From assembly GCA_965207375.1 (NCBI GenBank), contig OZ242274.1, positions 1,952,001 to 2,016,000 of the forward strand: a stretch of 64,000 nucleotides of DNA. Direction: 5' to 3'. Of this stretch, positions 17,816-47,386 are shown piece by piece. The DNA is from Nitrosopumilaceae archaeon (GTDB lineage: Archaea > Thermoproteota > Nitrososphaeria > Nitrososphaerales > Nitrosopumilaceae). The notes beneath the pieces were generated by a model. The model had not been told where the DNA came from. It ran no database searches and was given only the letters and a program-made list of their open reading frames with translations. The position numbers and the translations under genes were made by a program. Each line of letters opens with the position of its first letter. Position 1 is the first letter of the stretch.

Positions 17816-19831
17816 ATGGCAGCTGCCACAGGATTGTTATTATTTACACCGACTTTAGCAGATGCCCATTCTCCAACTGATGATGAATTTTTATGCAAAA
17901 GTGACAAATTGATGGCGCAGTTTGGAGCGGAACTGACCCATCCCCTTAATCCAGATGGTACAATAGACTACACTGCCTTCATTTTGTCAGGAGGACATCA
18001 AGGTCAACTTGGTGTTTACACCGACGCTGATGGTATAACCTACACATGCATTAATTATTTTGACAGTGCATTACAGTTTTACAGGGAATTACGAGTACAA
18101 TATAACGGACGTACAGACACATACATTACACCACCTGGCCAAAATTACCATGACGGAATAGAACGAATTGACATTTTCCATCATAATGGCTCTCTAAAAC
18201 AATCTATACTATATGAGGCAAAAACCATTCTAGGTGTTGAAGATGAAGACGATCCAAATAGTAACCCAAATCAAGGCGTGTTTATGAAACTAGAACATCA
18301 TGAAGATGGCACACTCAAAGAAATAATCAATCTTGAGGACGGTGAATCTCCAAGTGAAATAAAATTCAAAGAGGGCGGAAATATTGCAACAGAAGTTATC
18401 AAACGTGACTTGAAGGCAGAAAACACCACAAGGACAGATGAAAACGGTAATTTCCTATTACCTCAAAATAAAACCACATGGCATGATAACGGAATCCAAA
18501 AGAGTTATTATGAAATATTTCCAGACGGTAAAGACTTGAGTATCGAGTGGAATGAACGTGGAACTATGACCAAATATGTCAAAACATATTCCAATGATGT
18601 GGTGTATGTTTTACTAGAAACATCTCATGCGAATTTCATAAGCGCTCAAAATATTGCAGATATTTCAAAACCTGCCCTTGTGGCTGTTGTACGTGATGAC
18701 CTTAGAAGGTATTACTCAATTATTGATGTGGATACCCAGAGAGCAGCTATACACGGGAATATTAGGAATTTTGTAGAAGGTCACCTTCATGATTTGAATC
18801 ATGTACATCTTACCCATAATATAAACACGGTAACCGCTGCAATTGCAAATGGCATTTATAATGCGATTGTTATTACAGAAGCAGACAATAATCGTGGCAA
18901 AAACTATGTTGCTAGTCTTGCAGATGGTTTTGTAAGTACAGGAATTGCAAATATTGATGATAATGCCAGACTTAATCAACTCTTGACTCTGCATGACCAT
19001 ACAAACATTGACGGATTGGGTCACGTCACTTACCTCATATACGGCATAAATATGCAGACCCAATTATACCATGACGGCTCTACAGGTACTGAACTATGTT
19101 ATTCTGAAAATAGAGCAGCTATAACATGCACTGATGATTCTAGGGCAGAATATTTTGAATTTCTAGAGCGTATGATTCCAAGAACAGGCGGCAGCACTCA
19201 TGACACGGCATCTGCAAAATATGACCGTAACTTGAGTAACGAGATAACACCAGAGTTGTTAATTGCTGTACCAGGTTATGTAGATACATCTTTACTCAAT
19301 GAAGTAAGATATACAAAATCGCTATTGGAACACGGTAAATCAATAGCAAATGGCCCTAATGATCATGAGACTTGGAACAAGGTACTAGCAGCATTTGGAC
19401 ATTTGGATCAAGGCAAAATGACAGCAGCTGAAGCCCAAGTCAATGCTGATACATACGGAGGCCCATTATGGTCAAGAATTGCAGCAGCAATTAGCGAGTT
19501 AGAATCAGATACACCTGCAGGCATTAACGCAGAATCAATAGAACAGCAACCTATACCGGATTCAATACCTGATTCTATACAAGATACACAAGTTAAGCCT
19601 GAACCAGCAATAGACCCAGAACTAATTGAGGATGTAAAGTACCTTGCATCTATGACACATCACGGTGAGCAGCACGTTGAGCGATGGAACAGGGTTTTGG
19701 CAGCATTTGGGATTTTACAACATGATAACCCAATTACAGCTGCCGAGGCTGAAGCAAATTCAAAGAAATATTCTAGTCCACTCTGGCCTAAAATTGCAGA
19801 GGTTTTGAAAGTAATAGAGAATGCCAGCTAA
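17816..19831 (+). CDS. secreted protein with MORN/YwqK-like repeats and a duplicated C-terminal helical domain
   Basis: hydrophobic N-terminus ending ADA; repeats FHHNGSLK, HHEDGTLK, WHDNGIQK, WNERGTM; two WN(K/R)VLAAFG domains. Confidence 0.75.
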   Translation: MAAATGLLLFTPTLADAHSPTDDEFLCKSDKLMAQFGAELTHPLNPDGTIDYTAFILSGGHQGQLGVYTDADGITYTCINYFDSALQFYRELRVQYNGRTDTYITPPGQNYHDGIERIDIFHHNGSLKQSILYEAKTILGVEDEDDPNSNPNQGVFMKLEHHEDGTLKEIINLEDGESPSEIKFKEGGNIATEVIKRDLKAENTTRTDENGNFLLPQNKTTWHDNGIQKSYYEIFPDGKDLSIEWNERGTMTKYVKTYSNDVVYVLLETSHANFISAQNIADISKPALVAVVRDDLRRYYSIIDVDTQRAAIHGNIRNFVEGHLHDLNHVHLTHNINTVTAAIANGIYNAIVITEADNNRGKNYVASLADGFVSTGIANIDDNARLNQLLTLHDHTNIDGLGHVTYLIYGINMQTQLYHDGSTGTELCYSENRAAITCTDDSRAEYFEFLERMIPRTGGSTHDTASAKYDRNLSNEITPELLIAVPGYVDTSLLNEVRYTKSLLEHGKSIANGPNDHETWNKVLAAFGHLDQGKMTAAEAQVNADTYGGPLWSRIAAAISELESDTPAGINAESIEQQPIPDSIPDSIQDTQVKPEPAIDPELIEDVKYLASMTHHGEQHVERWNRVLAAFGILQHDNPITAAEAEANSKKYSSPLWPKIAEVLKVIENAS

Positions 19832-22786: not shown

Positions 22787-22998
22787 ACTAGTTCATTTAG
22801 AATAGATAATCTACAAGTCTGTTTTGCTGATGTGCCTGTTCCATCATTTGAAAGATAATGGAACATTACATCATGTATGTTTTAGATATGGAGACAGAAA
22901 TTAGATCAGCAGGTACAAATTTCTTGGTAAGCAAATGGTGGTATGTAACTAGGTTAAAGCTTCAAAAAGCCAAACAATTACAAATATTAGGTAAAATG

Positions 22999-23072
22999 TG
23001 GACCCGACGGGATTTGAACCCGTGACCTATTGATTTTCAAACAATCGCTCTACCAAGCTGAACCACAGGCCC
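22999..23072 (-). tRNA. tRNA with GAA anticodon but Ala-type acceptor stem (G3:U70, A73)
   Basis: folds GGGCCTG/CGGGTCC-A; D arm GTTC/GAGC; anticodon arm ATTGT-TTGAAAA-TCAAT; T arm ACGGG-TTCAAAT-CCCGT; upstream TATAAA. Confidence 0.8.
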
Positions 23073-37182: not shown

Positions 37183-37305
37183 TGGTCCCAAGCGAAGGAA
37201 TTGAACCTTCGACAACCCGGTTTCTGTATGCCTGATATGCTGTTTTACGGTCAGCCAGAGCCGACATCTACAGCCGGAAGCTCTACCAGGCTGAGCTAGC
37301 TTGGG
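37183..37305 (-). tRNA. tRNA-Tyr(GTA) with ~46-nt intron at 37/38, CCA encoded
   Basis: C1:G72 acceptor CCCAAGC/GCTTGGG-A-CCA; CTGT/ACAG central BHB helix. Confidence 0.92.
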
Positions 37306-42825: not shown

Positions 42826-43166
42826 GAATCATCTATACCCAGATTCTGCATCGGCATATCAAGCAGTCAGTATCCCAACATGTCGCGCCGAACACAATAG
42901 TAAATGTTTGAGAATTTCTTTGCAACACTTTCGTATATTTCCAGTCTTTTGGCAATTTCCCAAAATATCTTTTCAAACTTTTGTGTCACCTCCTTACCTG
43001 TAAGTTCTGTAGTCATTTCTATCTTTTTTATGATACTATCATACATCTCATCTGTGTCAGAAGGAATTTGTGGTTCATCTACCATGTATCTACCTGTATC
43101 AGTTATGGTAACCTTTGCATCTCCAATATCATACTGTTCTAGTATCGTAACATCAGATGATTTCAT
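42826..43166 (-). pseudogene. 5' fragment of a type II/IV secretion (FlaI/VirB11-like) ATPase
   Basis: YMVDEP...YYCVRRDMLGY*LLDMPMQNLGIDD resembles the YY..RD..GYG.ID.LM.D..IED motif; cut off at the MITE. Confidence 0.6.
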
Positions 43167-43319
43167 ATCTGCACGCAAGAGTCTATAGTCCAATGATATC
43201 ACAGAAATATTTTGTATAAAAGGAACAAGTTTCTGGTTTTTGAAATGTCAGCTTGGTTTGTGCTATACAAGATACATTGACCTACAGTAAATTCTATTTC
43301 TTGTTACAATACATTTTGC

Positions 43320-44814
43320 GTACTTGTTCACCTATTTTTGAGCATTTTTGGCCCTAAATGTACCGAACCAGCTCTACTAGATAATCCTGTCCCAGATTCT
43401 TCCAGGTAGTAACACACGTATACAGATTGCCTCTACGCTCCATACTTTTTTCAGATCTGAGACATCCACGTATTCTCCTGCACACGACATACTCACGCAG
43501 GCTCTGCTCTGCAAGATTGCTTGTAGATGGTATACGAGGGTCTATGACAAACCGGAACATGTCAGGTATGGCCCGTGACAGTTTTGCTACAAATTTACCC
43601 ACAATTTCATCATTGGCATACCTTTTGACAAGGTTACGTGTTCTTTTTTCCAATTGTACAGCATATGATTCTCTGTAATCAGGTGGTTTGTCTAGGACAT
43701 GTTTGCCGTCATGGTATATTTTCTGTAGGCATTGTAGTGTATTTTTTGCAATTTTAGAATCTGGATTCTTTTGTGATATTGTTTTGATTTCACGTATTAG
43801 GTGCGCGTTACATCTCTGGATGATATATCTGCGGTATGGAGGCCATCCGTCACAGGTTATGATTATATCTTGTGAGTCACCTATTATTTCCTTGAGTACG
43901 TTTGCTCCCCTGCTGGGATTAATTATATAGAAATTCTCACTTGTAATTGGATTATGAAACGTCCACAACCATATAGTCTTTCCATGCAGTCGCTCTGATG
44001 TCTCATCTGCTATCAGAATCTCGGCTTCCTGTATCTTTTCTTTTATCTCATTTGCAGGCACAAATAACGCATCAGAGACTGTATCTATGATGTTTTGAAT
44101 ACCTCCTTCAGATATTTCGATTCCACGTCTTTTCATGGCCTCCTTGTTCATACGTACCGGCATGTGATGTATGTGGTTATCCATTATCTCCTTTATCACT
44201 TCATTTCCAAACTGACCTTTTTTTGGAATGTCAACCTCGGGTGTAATGTCAGTAGCTCCACAGCAGTTGCAATGATACCCATGAATCTTGTGCTTGCAAG
44301 TATGTGGAGGAGGAGTTTTTACAATATCAGTTATTATCCTGATTTTGGTGTCTGTATGGTGTATGTCTTGAGAACCACACTTGGTACACGTGTCTAATTT
44401 GTGCTCTTTTTCTTCATCTACTTTGACCTTGCGGGCTACACCTGTGCGACCAGGTTGTCCTCCCTGTTTTTTTCCAGTAGATTTTTTGTTCTCTGCACGT
44501 ATTTTGCGGTCCTGCTTGCGTGTAATGGAATCCTTAGATGGAGGAGTATTGGAATTGTCATGATAGTTGTCACGTTTGGTAAGCTCTTGAATTTTTTTAT
44601 CTTTTTGTAGTAGGAGGTCATCTTTTTGTAATATGATTTTTTGTAAACTTGATACTAGAGATTCAAGAAGAAGGACTTTTCGGTGTTCCTTTTTGTATGC
44701 ACTTTTCCAGTTGATGGTACTCATTATACAACTTGTGAGTCAGAATGATTTAGATCTGATGGTGATCAAAATTTGAACAAATGGTGAAATTGTAGACACC
44801 ACGTGAACAAGTAC
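43320..44814 (-). mobile_element. intact IS66-family (ISBst12-type, single ORF) insertion sequence, 1495 bp
   Basis: TIR GTACTTGTTCAC/GTGAACAAGTAC; 8-bp TSD CATTTTGC at 43312-43319 and 44815-44822. Confidence 0.93.
43354..44724 (-). CDS. IS66-family transposase
   Basis: NSNTPPS, GGQPG, CxxC zinc ribbon, ADET, CDG, QRCNAHLIRE, SNLAEQSLR. Confidence 0.93.
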   Translation of the reverse strand: MSTINWKSAYKKEHRKVLLLESLVSSLQKIILQKDDLLLQKDKKIQELTKRDNYHDNSNTPPSKDSITRKQDRKIRAENKKSTGKKQGGQPGRTGVARKVKVDEEKEHKLDTCTKCGSQDIHHTDTKIRIITDIVKTPPPHTCKHKIHGYHCNCCGATDITPEVDIPKKGQFGNEVIKEIMDNHIHHMPVRMNKEAMKRRGIEISEGGIQNIIDTVSDALFVPANEIKEKIQEAEILIADETSERLHGKTIWLWTFHNPITSENFYIINPSRGANVLKEIIGDSQDIIITCDGWPPYRRYIIQRCNAHLIREIKTISQKNPDSKIAKNTLQCLQKIYHDGKHVLDKPPDYRESYAVQLEKRTRNLVKRYANDEIVGKFVAKLSRAIPDMFRFVIDPRIPSTSNLAEQSLREYVVCRRIRGCLRSEKSMERRGNLYTCVTTWKNLGQDYLVELVRYI

Positions 44815-44874
44815 CATTTTGCAATCCATAATTATTTCAAGATATAAATTATAGATACACGTAACATTACACAC

Positions 44875-44975
44875 GGTAGGTTTACCTAGCTAGGTAAGGT
44901 GTCGCCCTGAAGCGGTTGCCTCAGAGAGGCGATTGTGTCACGAGCACATCGTGGGTTCGAATCCCACACCTACCG
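44875..44975 (+). tRNA. Ser-type (long variable arm, G73) tRNA with GAA anticodon and 14-nt BHB intron (44913-44926)
   Basis: GGTAGGT/ACCTACC-G; TCGCC/GGCGA stem; BHB CTGA-AGC / TCAG-AGA; V arm TGTG...CACA; GGTTCGAATCC; upstream TATAAA 44843. Confidence 0.85.
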
Positions 44976-45141
44976 CTAGAATCTATAACTATATTAATTT
45001 TCAAGACTATATCACGCCTGAAACCATGACACGAAAATACACGTAACAGATCGACTTTCTGAAGTTACTTTGATTTTTAGATGATCCATGAAACTAGACA
45101 GTTAATGCTAAAGAATCGAAAGTGGGAATATTACATATTTT

Positions 45142-45940
45142 GTAAGTGTTAATGTCATGACTAGGTTTTGACCATTTACAATCAAATTTTTGGCAACATG
45201 ATCTAAATGAGGTCAAATAGCCAAACCATACGTTGACAGATTACAAAAAACTCTAAAGACAAACTAACTAAATCTAAAATTCAAACAGATAATGGAGGTA
45301 CAAGATAACATGTTGCAAAAAAAGATGTCATAATACAAAAAAAGAATGACACAGAAATAAATCTAAAAAATACAGTAAGATAACTAGAAAATGATGTACA
45401 CAATTTAAAAACTATTGTCACTGATCTTAATAAAAAACTCCAATTTTATGATAATACACATACTGTATAATCACGCAAGATGTCAGAAAAGAAGAGAGTT
45501 GAGAATAAAACTGAGAATAAAAACAAGAAAACGACAGGTAAATGAGGAGCACCAAAAGGACACGAAGGTGCAACAAGCCAAAACCTACAAAATTCAAACA
45601 ACACACGCCAGCAAAATGTCCAGAGTATGGTTATGAAGATCTTGAAATTAACGAAACACAGATACGCGACATTACAGACGTACCACAACCAGTACTGCAA
45701 CAGTCTGAAACAACACGTAGTAATCACAAAAAAGATTGGAATCATAAATTCCATTATTATGGCGTCGTCATGTCTGACTACACGGGTTTGCGTTCCATTC
45801 TTTGTTAAAATCACTATACACACCGATACAACAAATCTCTTTAAATTCTCGAATCTTGAAATGTATGTAATTTCGACTGCTAGTAGCAATGAAATGTATG
45901 CTCCCAATGGTTATCAGGTGTTCACGATGTTAACATTTAC
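45142..45940 (+). mobile_element. decayed, internally deleted IS66-family element
   Basis: ends GTAAGTGTTAATGTC / GATGTTAACATTTAC; frameshifted transposase pieces (CPEYG..., QIRDITDVPQP); paralogous to 26737-27091. Confidence 0.7.
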
Positions 45941-46057: not shown

Positions 46058-47386
46058 CTAGGAATCAAATTCCAGTTGGCCTGTTTCTGCAACATACTTG
46101 CCTAGACTTATCCAGTTAGAGCCATCAACTGACCATATCTCATAATCAGATATTGCCAAGTCACCAAACTCGTTGAAGATAACCTTGCCTATTGAACCTG
46201 TATGCTCTGCTGCAATATCTGGCAGTGCACTTTTCAGGACATCAGTCTCAATAGAGTCGGTAGATTCAATTGTCTTGCCTAGCACCCAAAGTGAGTCATA
46301 TGCAGAATATGCATAGTTTGAAGGTGCAGAGCCTTTTACAGATTCAAAATGAGCTTTTACGTGCTCGTATGTTTCGTTGTCTGATGCAGCAAACTGTGTT
46401 GTAATCAGATTTACATCATTTGCAAAACCTATAGCTAATGGATCATTAGTTATTGCATCGTCATTTGAGGATGCATCAGAGCCAAACCATTGGACTGTAC
46501 GTAACAATTCAGAGCTCCCGGCGAAGTTCATCAGATGAACAGCTTCTGAGAAGCTAATCATCAAAATTGCAATATTATCGATGTTGTATCCTTCGTTCAT
46601 GTACTGTTGTACCTTGGCATCAATCAAATCCACCTCATTTGAAAATGTTGTACCCTCAGGCGAGTATCGGATTCCTTCATCTACGACAATGCCTAACATT
46701 TCTGCATTATCCCTAGATGAGGCATACAAGCCATCACCCCACACGTCTGCTCTGTACACAGCTATGACAACTTGTATGTCATGATATTGTAACAGCTCAG
46801 CTATTACTACTCCTTGTTGTGTGTCATCAGGTACAAGTCGAAATATGGTGTCATCTATTGCAAGCTTGGGGCTTGTGCTAGATGGACTCAACAATATGAT
46901 TCCATTAGAATCTGCATATGGTTTGATGTTTCTTAGCTCAGAGCTTGACTGAGTGCCCAAAATAAAGTTTACACCTTTTGAGTTTAGCGATTGAATTTTT
47001 TCAAGTGCCACTACAGGGTCAGTCTGCGTGTCCTCTATTATGAGGTTTACACTCCAGCCTGCATCCTTGTCTTGGAGATACTTGTTAAAATCTTCTGCGG
47101 CAAGCTCTACTGCAATATTACTGTCATGTCCATGACTTGCAATATCACCAGTTGCAGGAAGCATAACACCGACATTTACGATGTCAGGCAAAGACATTGA
47201 TTCAGACATCATGTCAGTGTCAGACATTTGGTTTTCCATGTCAGTGTCAGACATTTGGTTTTCCATGTCAGTGTCAGACATTTGGTTTTCCATCATGTCA
47301 GGTGAGTCCTGAAATAGCGATACGGCAGCTATGGCGCCACCAGCTATAATTACAGCTGCAATTATCAAAACGATAGACGTTTTCAT
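46058..47386 (-). CDS. livK: branched-chain amino-acid ABC substrate-binding protein
   Basis: VGVMLPATG, EDTQTDP, SPSSTSP, FRLVPDD, AYDSLW; adjacent permeases and ATPases. Confidence 0.8.
   Translation of the reverse strand: MKTSIVLIIAAVIIAGGAIAAVSLFQDSPDMMENQMSDTDMENQMSDTDMENQMSDTDMMSESMSLPDIVNVGVMLPATGDIASHGHDSNIAVELAAEDFNKYLQDKDAGWSVNLIIEDTQTDPVVALEKIQSLNSKGVNFILGTQSSSELRNIKPYADSNGIILLSPSSTSPKLAIDDTIFRLVPDDTQQGVVIAELLQYHDIQVVIAVYRADVWGDGLYASSRDNAEMLGIVVDEGIRYSPEGTTFSNEVDLIDAKVQQYMNEGYNIDNIAILMISFSEAVHLMNFAGSSELLRTVQWFGSDASSNDDAITNDPLAIGFANDVNLITTQFAASDNETYEHVKAHFESVKGSAPSNYAYSAYDSLWVLGKTIESTDSIETDVLKSALPDIAAEHTGSIGKVIFNEFGDLAISDYEIWSVDGSNWISLGKYVAETGQLEFDS
47210..47293 (-). repeat. 27-bp tandem repeat x3 (MENQMSDTD)
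   Basis: catgtcagtgtcagacatttggttttc at 47210, 47237, 47264. Confidence 0.93.

Follow-up and report, generated by a model that had tools for sequence, protein, structure and literature searches.

The 64,000-nucleotide stretch of DNA analysed here (the window; positions 1,952,001–2,016,000 of contig OZ242274.1 from a Nitrosopumilaceae archaeon) carries, at window positions 44875–44975 on the plus strand, an intron-containing class II tRNA gene (tRNA positions 1–73) in which a serine-type body is joined to a phenylalanine anticodon, GAA. The gene has G at the discriminator position (G73), does not encode CCA, and is supported by Rfam model RF00005 (43.8 bits, the gathering score being 29; E = 2e-08; model positions 1–71; match spanning exactly 44875–44975), by ARAGORN with the -i option and by a parse of its stems. 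It was missed both by a fast-filter Rfam scan of the whole window and by intron-blind ARAGORN; intron-allowing ARAGORN returned tRNA-Phe(gaa) with a 14-nt intron, i(37,14).

The gene is structurally intact, every stem being paired. The acceptor stem GGTAGGT/ACCTACC pairs at 7/7 positions and U8 is present; the D arm reads ACCT-AGCTAGGTA-AGGT; the strands of the anticodon stem, TCGCC/GGCGA, are separated by 21 nt, corresponding to a 7-nt loop and 14 extra bases; and the T arm, GTGGG-TTCGAAT-CCCAC, precedes the discriminator G at 44975. The variable region (44933–44950, 18 nt) contains a TGTG/CACA stem extendable to 5 bp, and the stem parse thus confirms the class II anatomy and G73 described in the original prediction. 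U33, the 7-nt anticodon loop, the D-loop GG and the TTCGAAT T loop are all retained, and the 7-bp acceptor stem and 5-bp T stem form a canonical 7/5 branch. We also considered an 8-bp acceptor stem of the tRNA-Sec or allo-tRNA type, and rejected it: although -1 and 73 could pair, T at -1 is a recurring feature of the flank-inspected tRNA genes of this genome. None of 200 shuffled sequences was equally stable (z-score -5.2), the underlying minimum-energy fold of the whole tRNA being no cloverleaf, since the intron and arm pair otherwise, and serving for the z-score alone.

The 5' exon (44875–44912, positions 1–37) includes G34, A35 and A36 at 44909–44911, followed by G37; the 14-nt intron (44913–44926) occupies the canonical 37/38 site; and the 3' exon (44927–44975, positions 38–73) holds the variable and T arms. 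Excision of these 14 nt gives a predicted spliced loop of CUGAAGA, as had been proposed and as both ARAGORN and the sequence agree, the ARAGORN drawing placing the cut one base earlier with an identical mature sequence. The anticodon is GAA regardless of the exact cut, because G34, A35 and A36 all lie within the 5' exon. The archaeal bulge-helix-bulge motif consists of a 4-bp helix and two 3-nt bulges on opposite strands, with the cuts made inside the bulges. Folded alone, the anticodon arm forms a 4-bp helix CUGA/UCAG (44907–44910/44921–44924), including the A44910-U44921 pair expected between A35 and the intron, and this helix stacks on the anticodon stem, from which a 3-nt AGA bulge (44925–44927) separates it. 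On the 5' side the minimum-energy form has a 1-nt bulge with additional G-C and C-G pairs, a 3-nt AGC bulge being possible but less favoured. The motif, at first described as textbook, is therefore relaxed: the helix and the 3' bulge are as described, but the fold does not favour the 5' bulge. Upstream, an A/T-rich TATA-like box, ATATAAATTATAG, lies at 44842–44854 on the plus strand (-33 to -21 of the tRNA); from its sequence it is a putative archaeal promoter, and a similarly placed box is found 5' of the housekeeping tRNA-Phe gene.

Relation to the housekeeping tRNA genes

The genome (4.3 Mb, 4 contigs) has a housekeeping tRNA-Phe gene at C1:1921024–1921100, which is class I, has A73, encodes CCA and was matched in 22 of 24 family relatives at 85–99% identity. 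It also has an intron-bearing tRNA-Ser(GGA) gene at C1:44747–44848, with the intron at 37/38, matched in all 24 relatives (78–98% identity), in 22 of them at full length including the intron. The gene at 44875–44975 has a full-length match in just one of 40 relatives, at 73% identity. It is 64% identical to tRNA-Ser(GGA) and 64–69% identical to the four housekeeping Ser tRNAs, and its best match within the genome is another odd tRNA (class II with a non-serine anticodon). On these comparisons it is an accessory extra gene, neither a mutated tRNA-Ser(GGA) nor the conserved tRNA-Phe of the lineage, a possibility raised in the original prediction, the orthologue of which is the gene at C1:1921024–1921100.

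As GAA is one base from GGA, a further explanation, along lines raised in the original prediction, is that the anticodon arose from the genome's tRNA-Ser(GGA) by a recent point mutation or RNA editing, or that it is a sequencing error. Contigs of three sequencing runs (X1, X3 and X4, from two studies, possibly including the source) span 44787–45060 with no differences, and a contig of a fourth run (X5, from a third study) spans 44866–45005 with five differences, among them a C>T change at 44969 which still pairs (G-U), while retaining GAA and the intron. There is thus no alternative letter at 44910 in contigs of four runs from three studies, all of which have A, and GAA is also kept by homologues in other genomes. 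The Ser(GGA) loop, CUGGAAA, is two changes away from CUGAAGA, and the search for a further Ser(GGA) gene that had been recommended is answered by the conserved intron-bearing copy at C1:44747–44848. Given this separate conserved gene, the two-change difference between loops, the 64% identity and the independent contigs, we reject a G-to-A change, editing or error as the origin of the anticodon and regard it as extremely improbable.

Contigs C2, C3 and C4 (0.43–0.93 Mb, GC content ~37%) carry tRNA genes of their own, including a Thr cluster (C3, ~493 kb) and an Arg cluster (C4, ~791–807 kb). A tRNA-Ser(TGA) at C4:187578 is unlike the Ser tRNAs of C1 and may be eukaryote-like.

Related tRNAs and their mobile-element setting

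A second class II/G73 tRNA(GAA) is found at C1:1677242–1677326 (L023:7243–7326); it has no intron, its variable arm has exact Ser geometry, and it is flanked by transposase genes. It is preceded by a hairpin with a 7-bp stem, the loop of which repeats the 5' strands of the tRNA's variable arm and anticodon stem. Another class II/G73 tRNA, at C1:349757–349842 on the minus strand (L072:3002–3085), has the anticodon UAU (Ile AUA), shares its acceptor stem with the second GAA tRNA and is adjoined by a split IS240/SWIM transposase gene; a UAU homologue is present in a genome of the same genus (G002).

The wider family was surveyed by pattern scans followed by sequence retrieval and ARAGORN, so that all counts are lower bounds. 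At least 8 of the 201 family genomes sampled contain intact class II GAA tRNAs (G000, G004, G023, G124, G160, G192, G200 and G209, which has five copies), the denominator including three unpublished genomes (G094, G108, G109), none of them positive. Decayed or uncertain copies in G005 (L034; L082, twice), G080 and G171 (L067) had no ARAGORN call and were excluded from the intact count. A scan of one genome per species across 185,579 species gave 31 loci, of which 16 lie in records titled Nitrosopumilus, Nitrosotalea, Nitrosopumilaceae or Thaumarchaeota; a 17th, in a record titled Leptonemataceae, is the same kind of sequence. Six more are in DPANN-titled records and one in a Methanosarcinales-titled record, the remainder being other tRNAs or matches by chance. 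A class II GAA tRNA with a 21-nt intron at the same 37/38 site is present at four of the DPANN loci and at the Methanosarcinales locus. The class II GAA loci in Woesearchaeota-, Nanoarchaeota- and Methanosarcinales-titled records (L281, L290, L299, L300, L306; L338, L339) have G73, apart from A73 in L306. One of seven matches in viral contigs (L310) is an intact class II GAA/G73 tRNA (L318 c9042–9128), on a predicted viral contig of 35 kb, estimated to be 40% complete, which also has genes for an MCM helicase, a Dam methylase and an HNH nuclease. A 15-base segment from the D and anticodon arms also matched 70 viral-contig loci and at least 119 metagenome-contig loci; none of the 171 loci examined had a downstream T-loop motif, and these matches were dismissed as chance on that ground.

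Bodies with the Ser-type D loop and G73 occur under other anticodons as well, namely UAU (G002), GAU (G160, two copies), CAA (G077; G115, two copies; G160), UAA (G059, G021), UUC (G001) and CCU (G004), these counts being minimum values as 150 of 542 pattern matches were listed. G73 is present in 11 of 13 class II tRNAs with these six anticodons, two copies in G150 having A73; a class II tRNA with anticodon GAG (G209) has G73 and a longer D region. The gene at 44875–44975 belongs to a group of class II tRNAs, recurrent in archaea of the Nitrosopumilaceae type, that have non-serine anticodons and are associated with mobile elements.

The immediate neighbourhood of the gene is rich in repeated sequence. 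An IS66-family insertion sequence (43313–44815, minus strand; transposase open reading frame (ORF) 43354–44724, Pfam DDE_Tnp_IS66 1.7e-34) ends 59 nt upstream of the tRNA, and nine further full-length copies at ~99% identity are found on C1. It lies between the tRNA and what remains of a T2SSE/VirB11/FlaI-like ATPase gene, an N-terminal portion (42867–43202, minus strand; a 111-aa ORF) cut off at the end of IS66. Positions 42828–43283 have 82% DNA identity to the start of an intact 486-aa ATPase gene at a paralogous locus without the IS66 insertion. Just 3' of the tRNA is a short dispersed repeat of 53–62 bp (45034–45095; 18 other copies on C1), followed by a dispersed repeat of ~580 bp (45136–45718) with 12 other matches on C1, seven of them near full length (78–82%), one of ~560 bp and four shorter.

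The paralogous locus, C1:1369943–1372514, preserves the uninterrupted arrangement: the intact 486-aa T2SSE ATPase gene; a copy of the 5' half of the tRNA (positions 1–44, 93% identical, with the same flanks); a gene for a 634-aa TraG/HerA-like ATPase; a 5'-truncated tRNA copy (positions 26–94, 83%, loop CUGAGG plus an insert); an N6_N4 DNA methylase gene; and a ScaI-type endonuclease gene. In another genome of the same genus (G004) the copy of the tRNA has a 6-nt loop and one acceptor mismatch, with IS66 adjoining and homologues of both ATPases at most 6 kb away, while G080 holds two broken copies. An intact homologue in a record titled Nitrosopumilus sp. (L295) has the 14-nt intron at the same position and GAA, but A73; it is adjoined by an IS240/SWIM transposase, an N6_N4 methylase and an HNH nuclease. 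A TraG-like gene adjoins yet another class II GAA tRNA (L058), and a single IS240/SWIM transposase family is found beside four different odd tRNAs. In three congeneric genomes (G001, G003, G004), the region 3' of the Na/H exchanger orthologue was searched for an empty site; it showed no homology to the window from 42144 onward and no tRNA. Synteny is lost there in all three, giving no clean insertion boundary. The tRNA is thus accessory cargo of a conjugative-element-like module, degraded here to a stub among housekeeping genes.

Further tRNAs of a different kind share this setting. The genome has six extra class I GAA tRNAs with A73, of which five form one family (window 22998–23072, minus strand; C1:1341225, 1355322, 1407365 and 1444064) with 76–92% mutual identity, unlike the housekeeping tRNA-Phe; the sixth, C1:823190, is unrelated to them. 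Members of the family share their paralogous islands with the class II copies. Each of the five genes has its own anticodon stem-loop copied at about -49, with 0–1 mismatch per 14 nt and co-varying between paralogues, and is also preceded by a degenerate copy of its 5' half. Several odd tRNAs have a same-sense partial self-copy of this sort 45–100 nt upstream, co-varying with the tRNA, and in four class II tRNAs the copy comprises the 5' strands of the variable arm and anticodon stem, inside a hairpin. No such copy was found upstream of the housekeeping tRNAs of this genome, or of the gene at 44875–44975, where IS66 is 59 nt away.

Three other observations concern the window. A 671-aa ORF without a Pfam match (17816–19831, plus strand) has 85% DNA identity to C1:1435231–1437469, in an island with truncated tRNA copies. 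In two congeneric genomes (G003:C3 and G004:C2), very long open frames of 1168 to 4896 aa contain tandemly repeated relatives of the periplasmic-binding protein at 46058–47386. A tRNA-Tyr(GTA) gene at 37186–37305 (minus strand) has an intron of 46–49 nt, and its intron-bearing orthologues are widespread in the family.

The amino acid carried by the tRNA

Serine identity depends on the variable arm, whatever the anticodon; G73 acts as a strong element for both bacterial-type and archaeal seryl-tRNA synthetase (SerRS) and an antideterminant for archaeal leucyl-tRNA synthetase (LeuRS), and A73 is strictly conserved for tRNA-Phe in five systems (PMC9976931; here and below, publications are cited from extracts of their text). 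The gene has both serine features, the long arm (18 nt, 5-bp stem) and G73, together with a 17-nt D region of the same CTAG...GGTA type as the four housekeeping Ser tRNAs (GGA, UGA, GCU, CGA), the Leu type having 19 nt. Long arm, G73 and GAA are all confirmed, and the proposed conflict between body and anticodon is thus real. Across genomes, G73 class II bodies bear GAA, UAU, GAU, CAA, UAA and GAG, with single cases of UUC and CCU; since the same body occurs under so many anticodons, including those of Leu, a single anticodon-blind synthetase fits best. One SerRS N-domain match was found in the genome (SerRS, ~C1:891 kb), and for the alpha subunit of phenylalanyl-tRNA synthetase (PheRS) one strong match (~C1:911 kb) and one weak one (23.7 bits, same family, elsewhere on C1); these searches revealed no dedicated paralogue of either synthetase.

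With moderate confidence, we infer a serine identity, such that the spliced tRNA would be charged by the anticodon-blind SerRS and read UUY codons as serine, making it an archaeal 7/5 counterpart of the allo-tRNAs and nev-tRNAs discussed below. The gene would be transcribed from its own TATA-like promoter at -33 to -21, and the splicing endonuclease would excise 44913–44926 at the relaxed bulge-helix-bulge. The mature 87-nt tRNA, with CCA added, would then be serylated by the single SerRS, which would ignore the anticodon and read the long arm and G73, and would pair with UUC/UUU on the ribosome in competition with the normal tRNA-Phe. The predicted outcome is low-level or conditional Phe-to-Ser mistranslation, serving as toxic or regulatory cargo of the element, and not a change of the genetic code. 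In one protein, the element's own 486-aa ATPase aligned to PDB 2oap, we saw no sign of UUY recoding: conserved Phe aligns with Phe and Walker A is normal.

Several points weigh against serine. The gene has no serine anticodon (NGA or GCU), and has C30-G40 where all four housekeeping Ser tRNAs have G30-C40, although this is a weaker element. Its variable arm has one unpaired base, 5 bp, a 5-nt loop and two unpaired bases, compared to 0, 5 bp, a 4-nt loop and 1 in the housekeeping Ser tRNAs. Serine for phenylalanine is a harsh substitution, and steady expression of a tRNA making it would be costly. The closest intact homologue, L295, which has the same intron, and the copy in G023 both have A73; the spliced loop is identical to that of the housekeeping tRNA-Phe; and sister copies are decayed, as described above for G004, G080 (both copies) and the two truncated copies in the same genome.

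Two of these points are equally arguments that PheRS charges the tRNA with phenylalanine via GAA, which would make it an extra, element-borne tRNA-Phe in an odd body, either supplying UUY decoding for the A/T-rich genes of the element or replacing a host tRNA-Phe attacked by a nuclease that targets tRNAs. The gene retains G34, A35 and A36 in a loop matching that of tRNA-Phe, and A73 in L295 and G023 completes the G34-A35-A36-A73 set. In all five systems studied, Phe identity centres on GAA, and PheRS mischarges a yeast tRNA-Tyr whose anticodon has been changed to GAA (PMC9976931). The six extra class I GAA/A73 tRNAs, one family of which lies in the islands holding the class II copies, likewise suggest selection for GAA decoders as such. 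However, A73 and a class I body are both absent from the gene itself, and G73 is found in 26 of the 28 class II GAA tRNAs compared below. G73 bodies of the same type bear Leu anticodons (CAA, UAA, GAG), and LeuRS does not read the anticodon. We know of no tRNA-Phe with a long variable arm. A normal tRNA-Phe coexists in the same genome, and a class I tRNA-Phe with a T-arm intron in two (G220 and G221) of the four DPANN genomes checked, the others being G222 and G219, for which the Rfam scan listed just 11 tRNAs. We therefore regard charging with phenylalanine as improbable.

It is also conceivable that the gene has no translational use, being either a decaying cargo relic that is still intact, or a tRNA-like element that acts as an integration target, decoy or regulatory RNA. 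Breaks or truncations are seen in several sister copies, all that is left of the flanking element is a 111-aa ATPase fragment cut by IS66, and both synteny and the tRNA are missing 3' of the Na/H exchanger gene in three congeneric genomes. In E. coli, allo-tRNA(UAU) genes of bacteria situated near transposons had no activity (PMC5389517). Yet all stems of the gene pair and the variant in run X5 keeps its pairing, while U33, the 7-nt loop, the D-loop GG, the TTCGAAT T loop and a TATA-like box at -33 to -21 are all in place.

A further argument for a decoding tRNA comes from comparison of the set. In 28 non-duplicate class II GAA tRNAs, 459 of 476 positions in the acceptor, anticodon and T stems pair (96%), whereas shuffling of partners gave a mean of 327 (sd 6.6) and reached 459 in none of 1000 trials; these figures describe maintained structure and are not a probability, since the set was picked by patterns and ARAGORN, which favours intact structures, and its members are relatives and not independent, a limit that must be held against our preferred explanation too. 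Up to six pair types occur per position, and the acceptor stems have diverged completely, while 20 have the loop CUGAAAA and 4 have CUGAAGA, and at N73 there is G in 26 copies and A in the other 2. Compensatory changes throughout the family, and the conservation of the loop in 24 of 28, point towards a decoding tRNA under selection, and we consider the absence of a translational role unlikely, though worth serious consideration.

If these tRNAs are indeed serylated, mobile elements of archaea would encode deliberate Phe-to-Ser (and Ile- or Leu-to-Ser) mistranslation. If they are charged with phenylalanine instead, an archaeal PheRS would have to accept a class II, G73 substrate, and the rules of Phe identity would need revision. 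A much wider proposal is that ammonia-oxidising and some DPANN archaea harbour a dedicated, element-borne class of serine-charged tRNAs, mostly directed at hydrophobic codons, which act as RNA toxins or as addiction or anti-defence modules through conditional proteome-wide mistranslation, with upstream leader hairpins that copy parts of the tRNA body restraining maturation, and the extra class I tRNA-Phe(GAA) genes found alongside providing competing antidotes. We put this forward as speculation and think it quite doubtful.

Comparison with known systems

Natural tRNAs with a mismatch between identity and anticodon are rare, and those of the CUG-clade yeasts, the nev-tRNAs and the allo-tRNAs have reshaped views on ambiguity of the code. 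The present cases have a canonical 7/5 cloverleaf, an archaeal splicing intron in the gene described here, many independent copies with compensatory changes and a preference for the Phe anticodon, and they travel with conjugative-element and transposase genes. Annotation pipelines call such genes tRNA-Phe by the anticodon alone. In the literature searched, which did not extend to subscription journals or supplements, we found no archaeal class II tRNA described that bears an anticodon of Phe or of any other amino acid than Ser and Leu. In the extracts of the allo-tRNA report PMC5389517 the word 'archaea' is confined to the reference list, and in those of a study of integrated elements in Thaumarchaeota (PMC6563490) tRNA genes appear only as integration targets.

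Within the same genome, the closest counterparts of the gene are the housekeeping Ser tRNAs, which share the class II body, G73, the 17-nt D region and the 7/5 branch, as well as, in Ser(GGA), the intron at 37/38. They differ in G30-C40, in the numbers of unpaired bases in the arm and in their serine anticodons, and Ser(GGA) is conserved in relatives. The housekeeping tRNA-Phe shares GAA and the loop CUGAAGA, but differs in its class I body, A73, encoded CCA and conservation. The function proposed here resembles that of yeast and human tRNA-Ser missense suppressors, in which a changed anticodon causes mistranslation because SerRS is anticodon-blind, many of them being toxic (PMC6827378, PMC6125640). 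However, those were built in the laboratory or are rare alleles that differ from a normal tRNA-Ser by one mutation, whereas here we have a diverged natural family associated with mobile elements.

Two natural families are closer. The nev-tRNAs of nematodes are, like the gene described here, class II tRNAs with anticodons (Gly CCC, Ile UAU) that fit neither Leu nor Ser; they are charged by an anticodon-blind synthetase, decode against the standard code in vitro and have low expression (PMC3333845). However, they derive from tRNA-Leu, are leucylated, eukaryotic and nematode-specific, and have no link with mobile elements described in the extracts of that report. Their leucine identity (A73 and LeuRS elements) also contrasts with the G73 and Ser-type 17-nt D region of the gene described here.

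The allo-tRNAs, like the present set, combine serine-type features (long arm, G73) with non-serine anticodons, UAU being favoured, and their genes lie near transposon-related genes, with intact and decayed copies mixed (PMC5389517, PMC7609411). Their genes are also found near toxin-antitoxin genes, and active allo-tRNAs in E. coli inserted Ser at Leu codons, which was lethal (PMC5389517, PMC7609411). They are nevertheless distinct in several respects. They are defined by a 12-bp acceptor branch of 8/4 or 9/3, whereas the gene described here and its relatives are canonical 7/5; they are bacterial and intron-free, whereas the gene comes from an archaeon and contains an intron of the splicing-endonuclease kind; and among them a Phe anticodon is reported only once, whereas GAA dominates here. 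From these likenesses and differences, we suggest that the archaeal set may work in the manner of the allo-tRNAs and nev-tRNAs while being a member of neither family.

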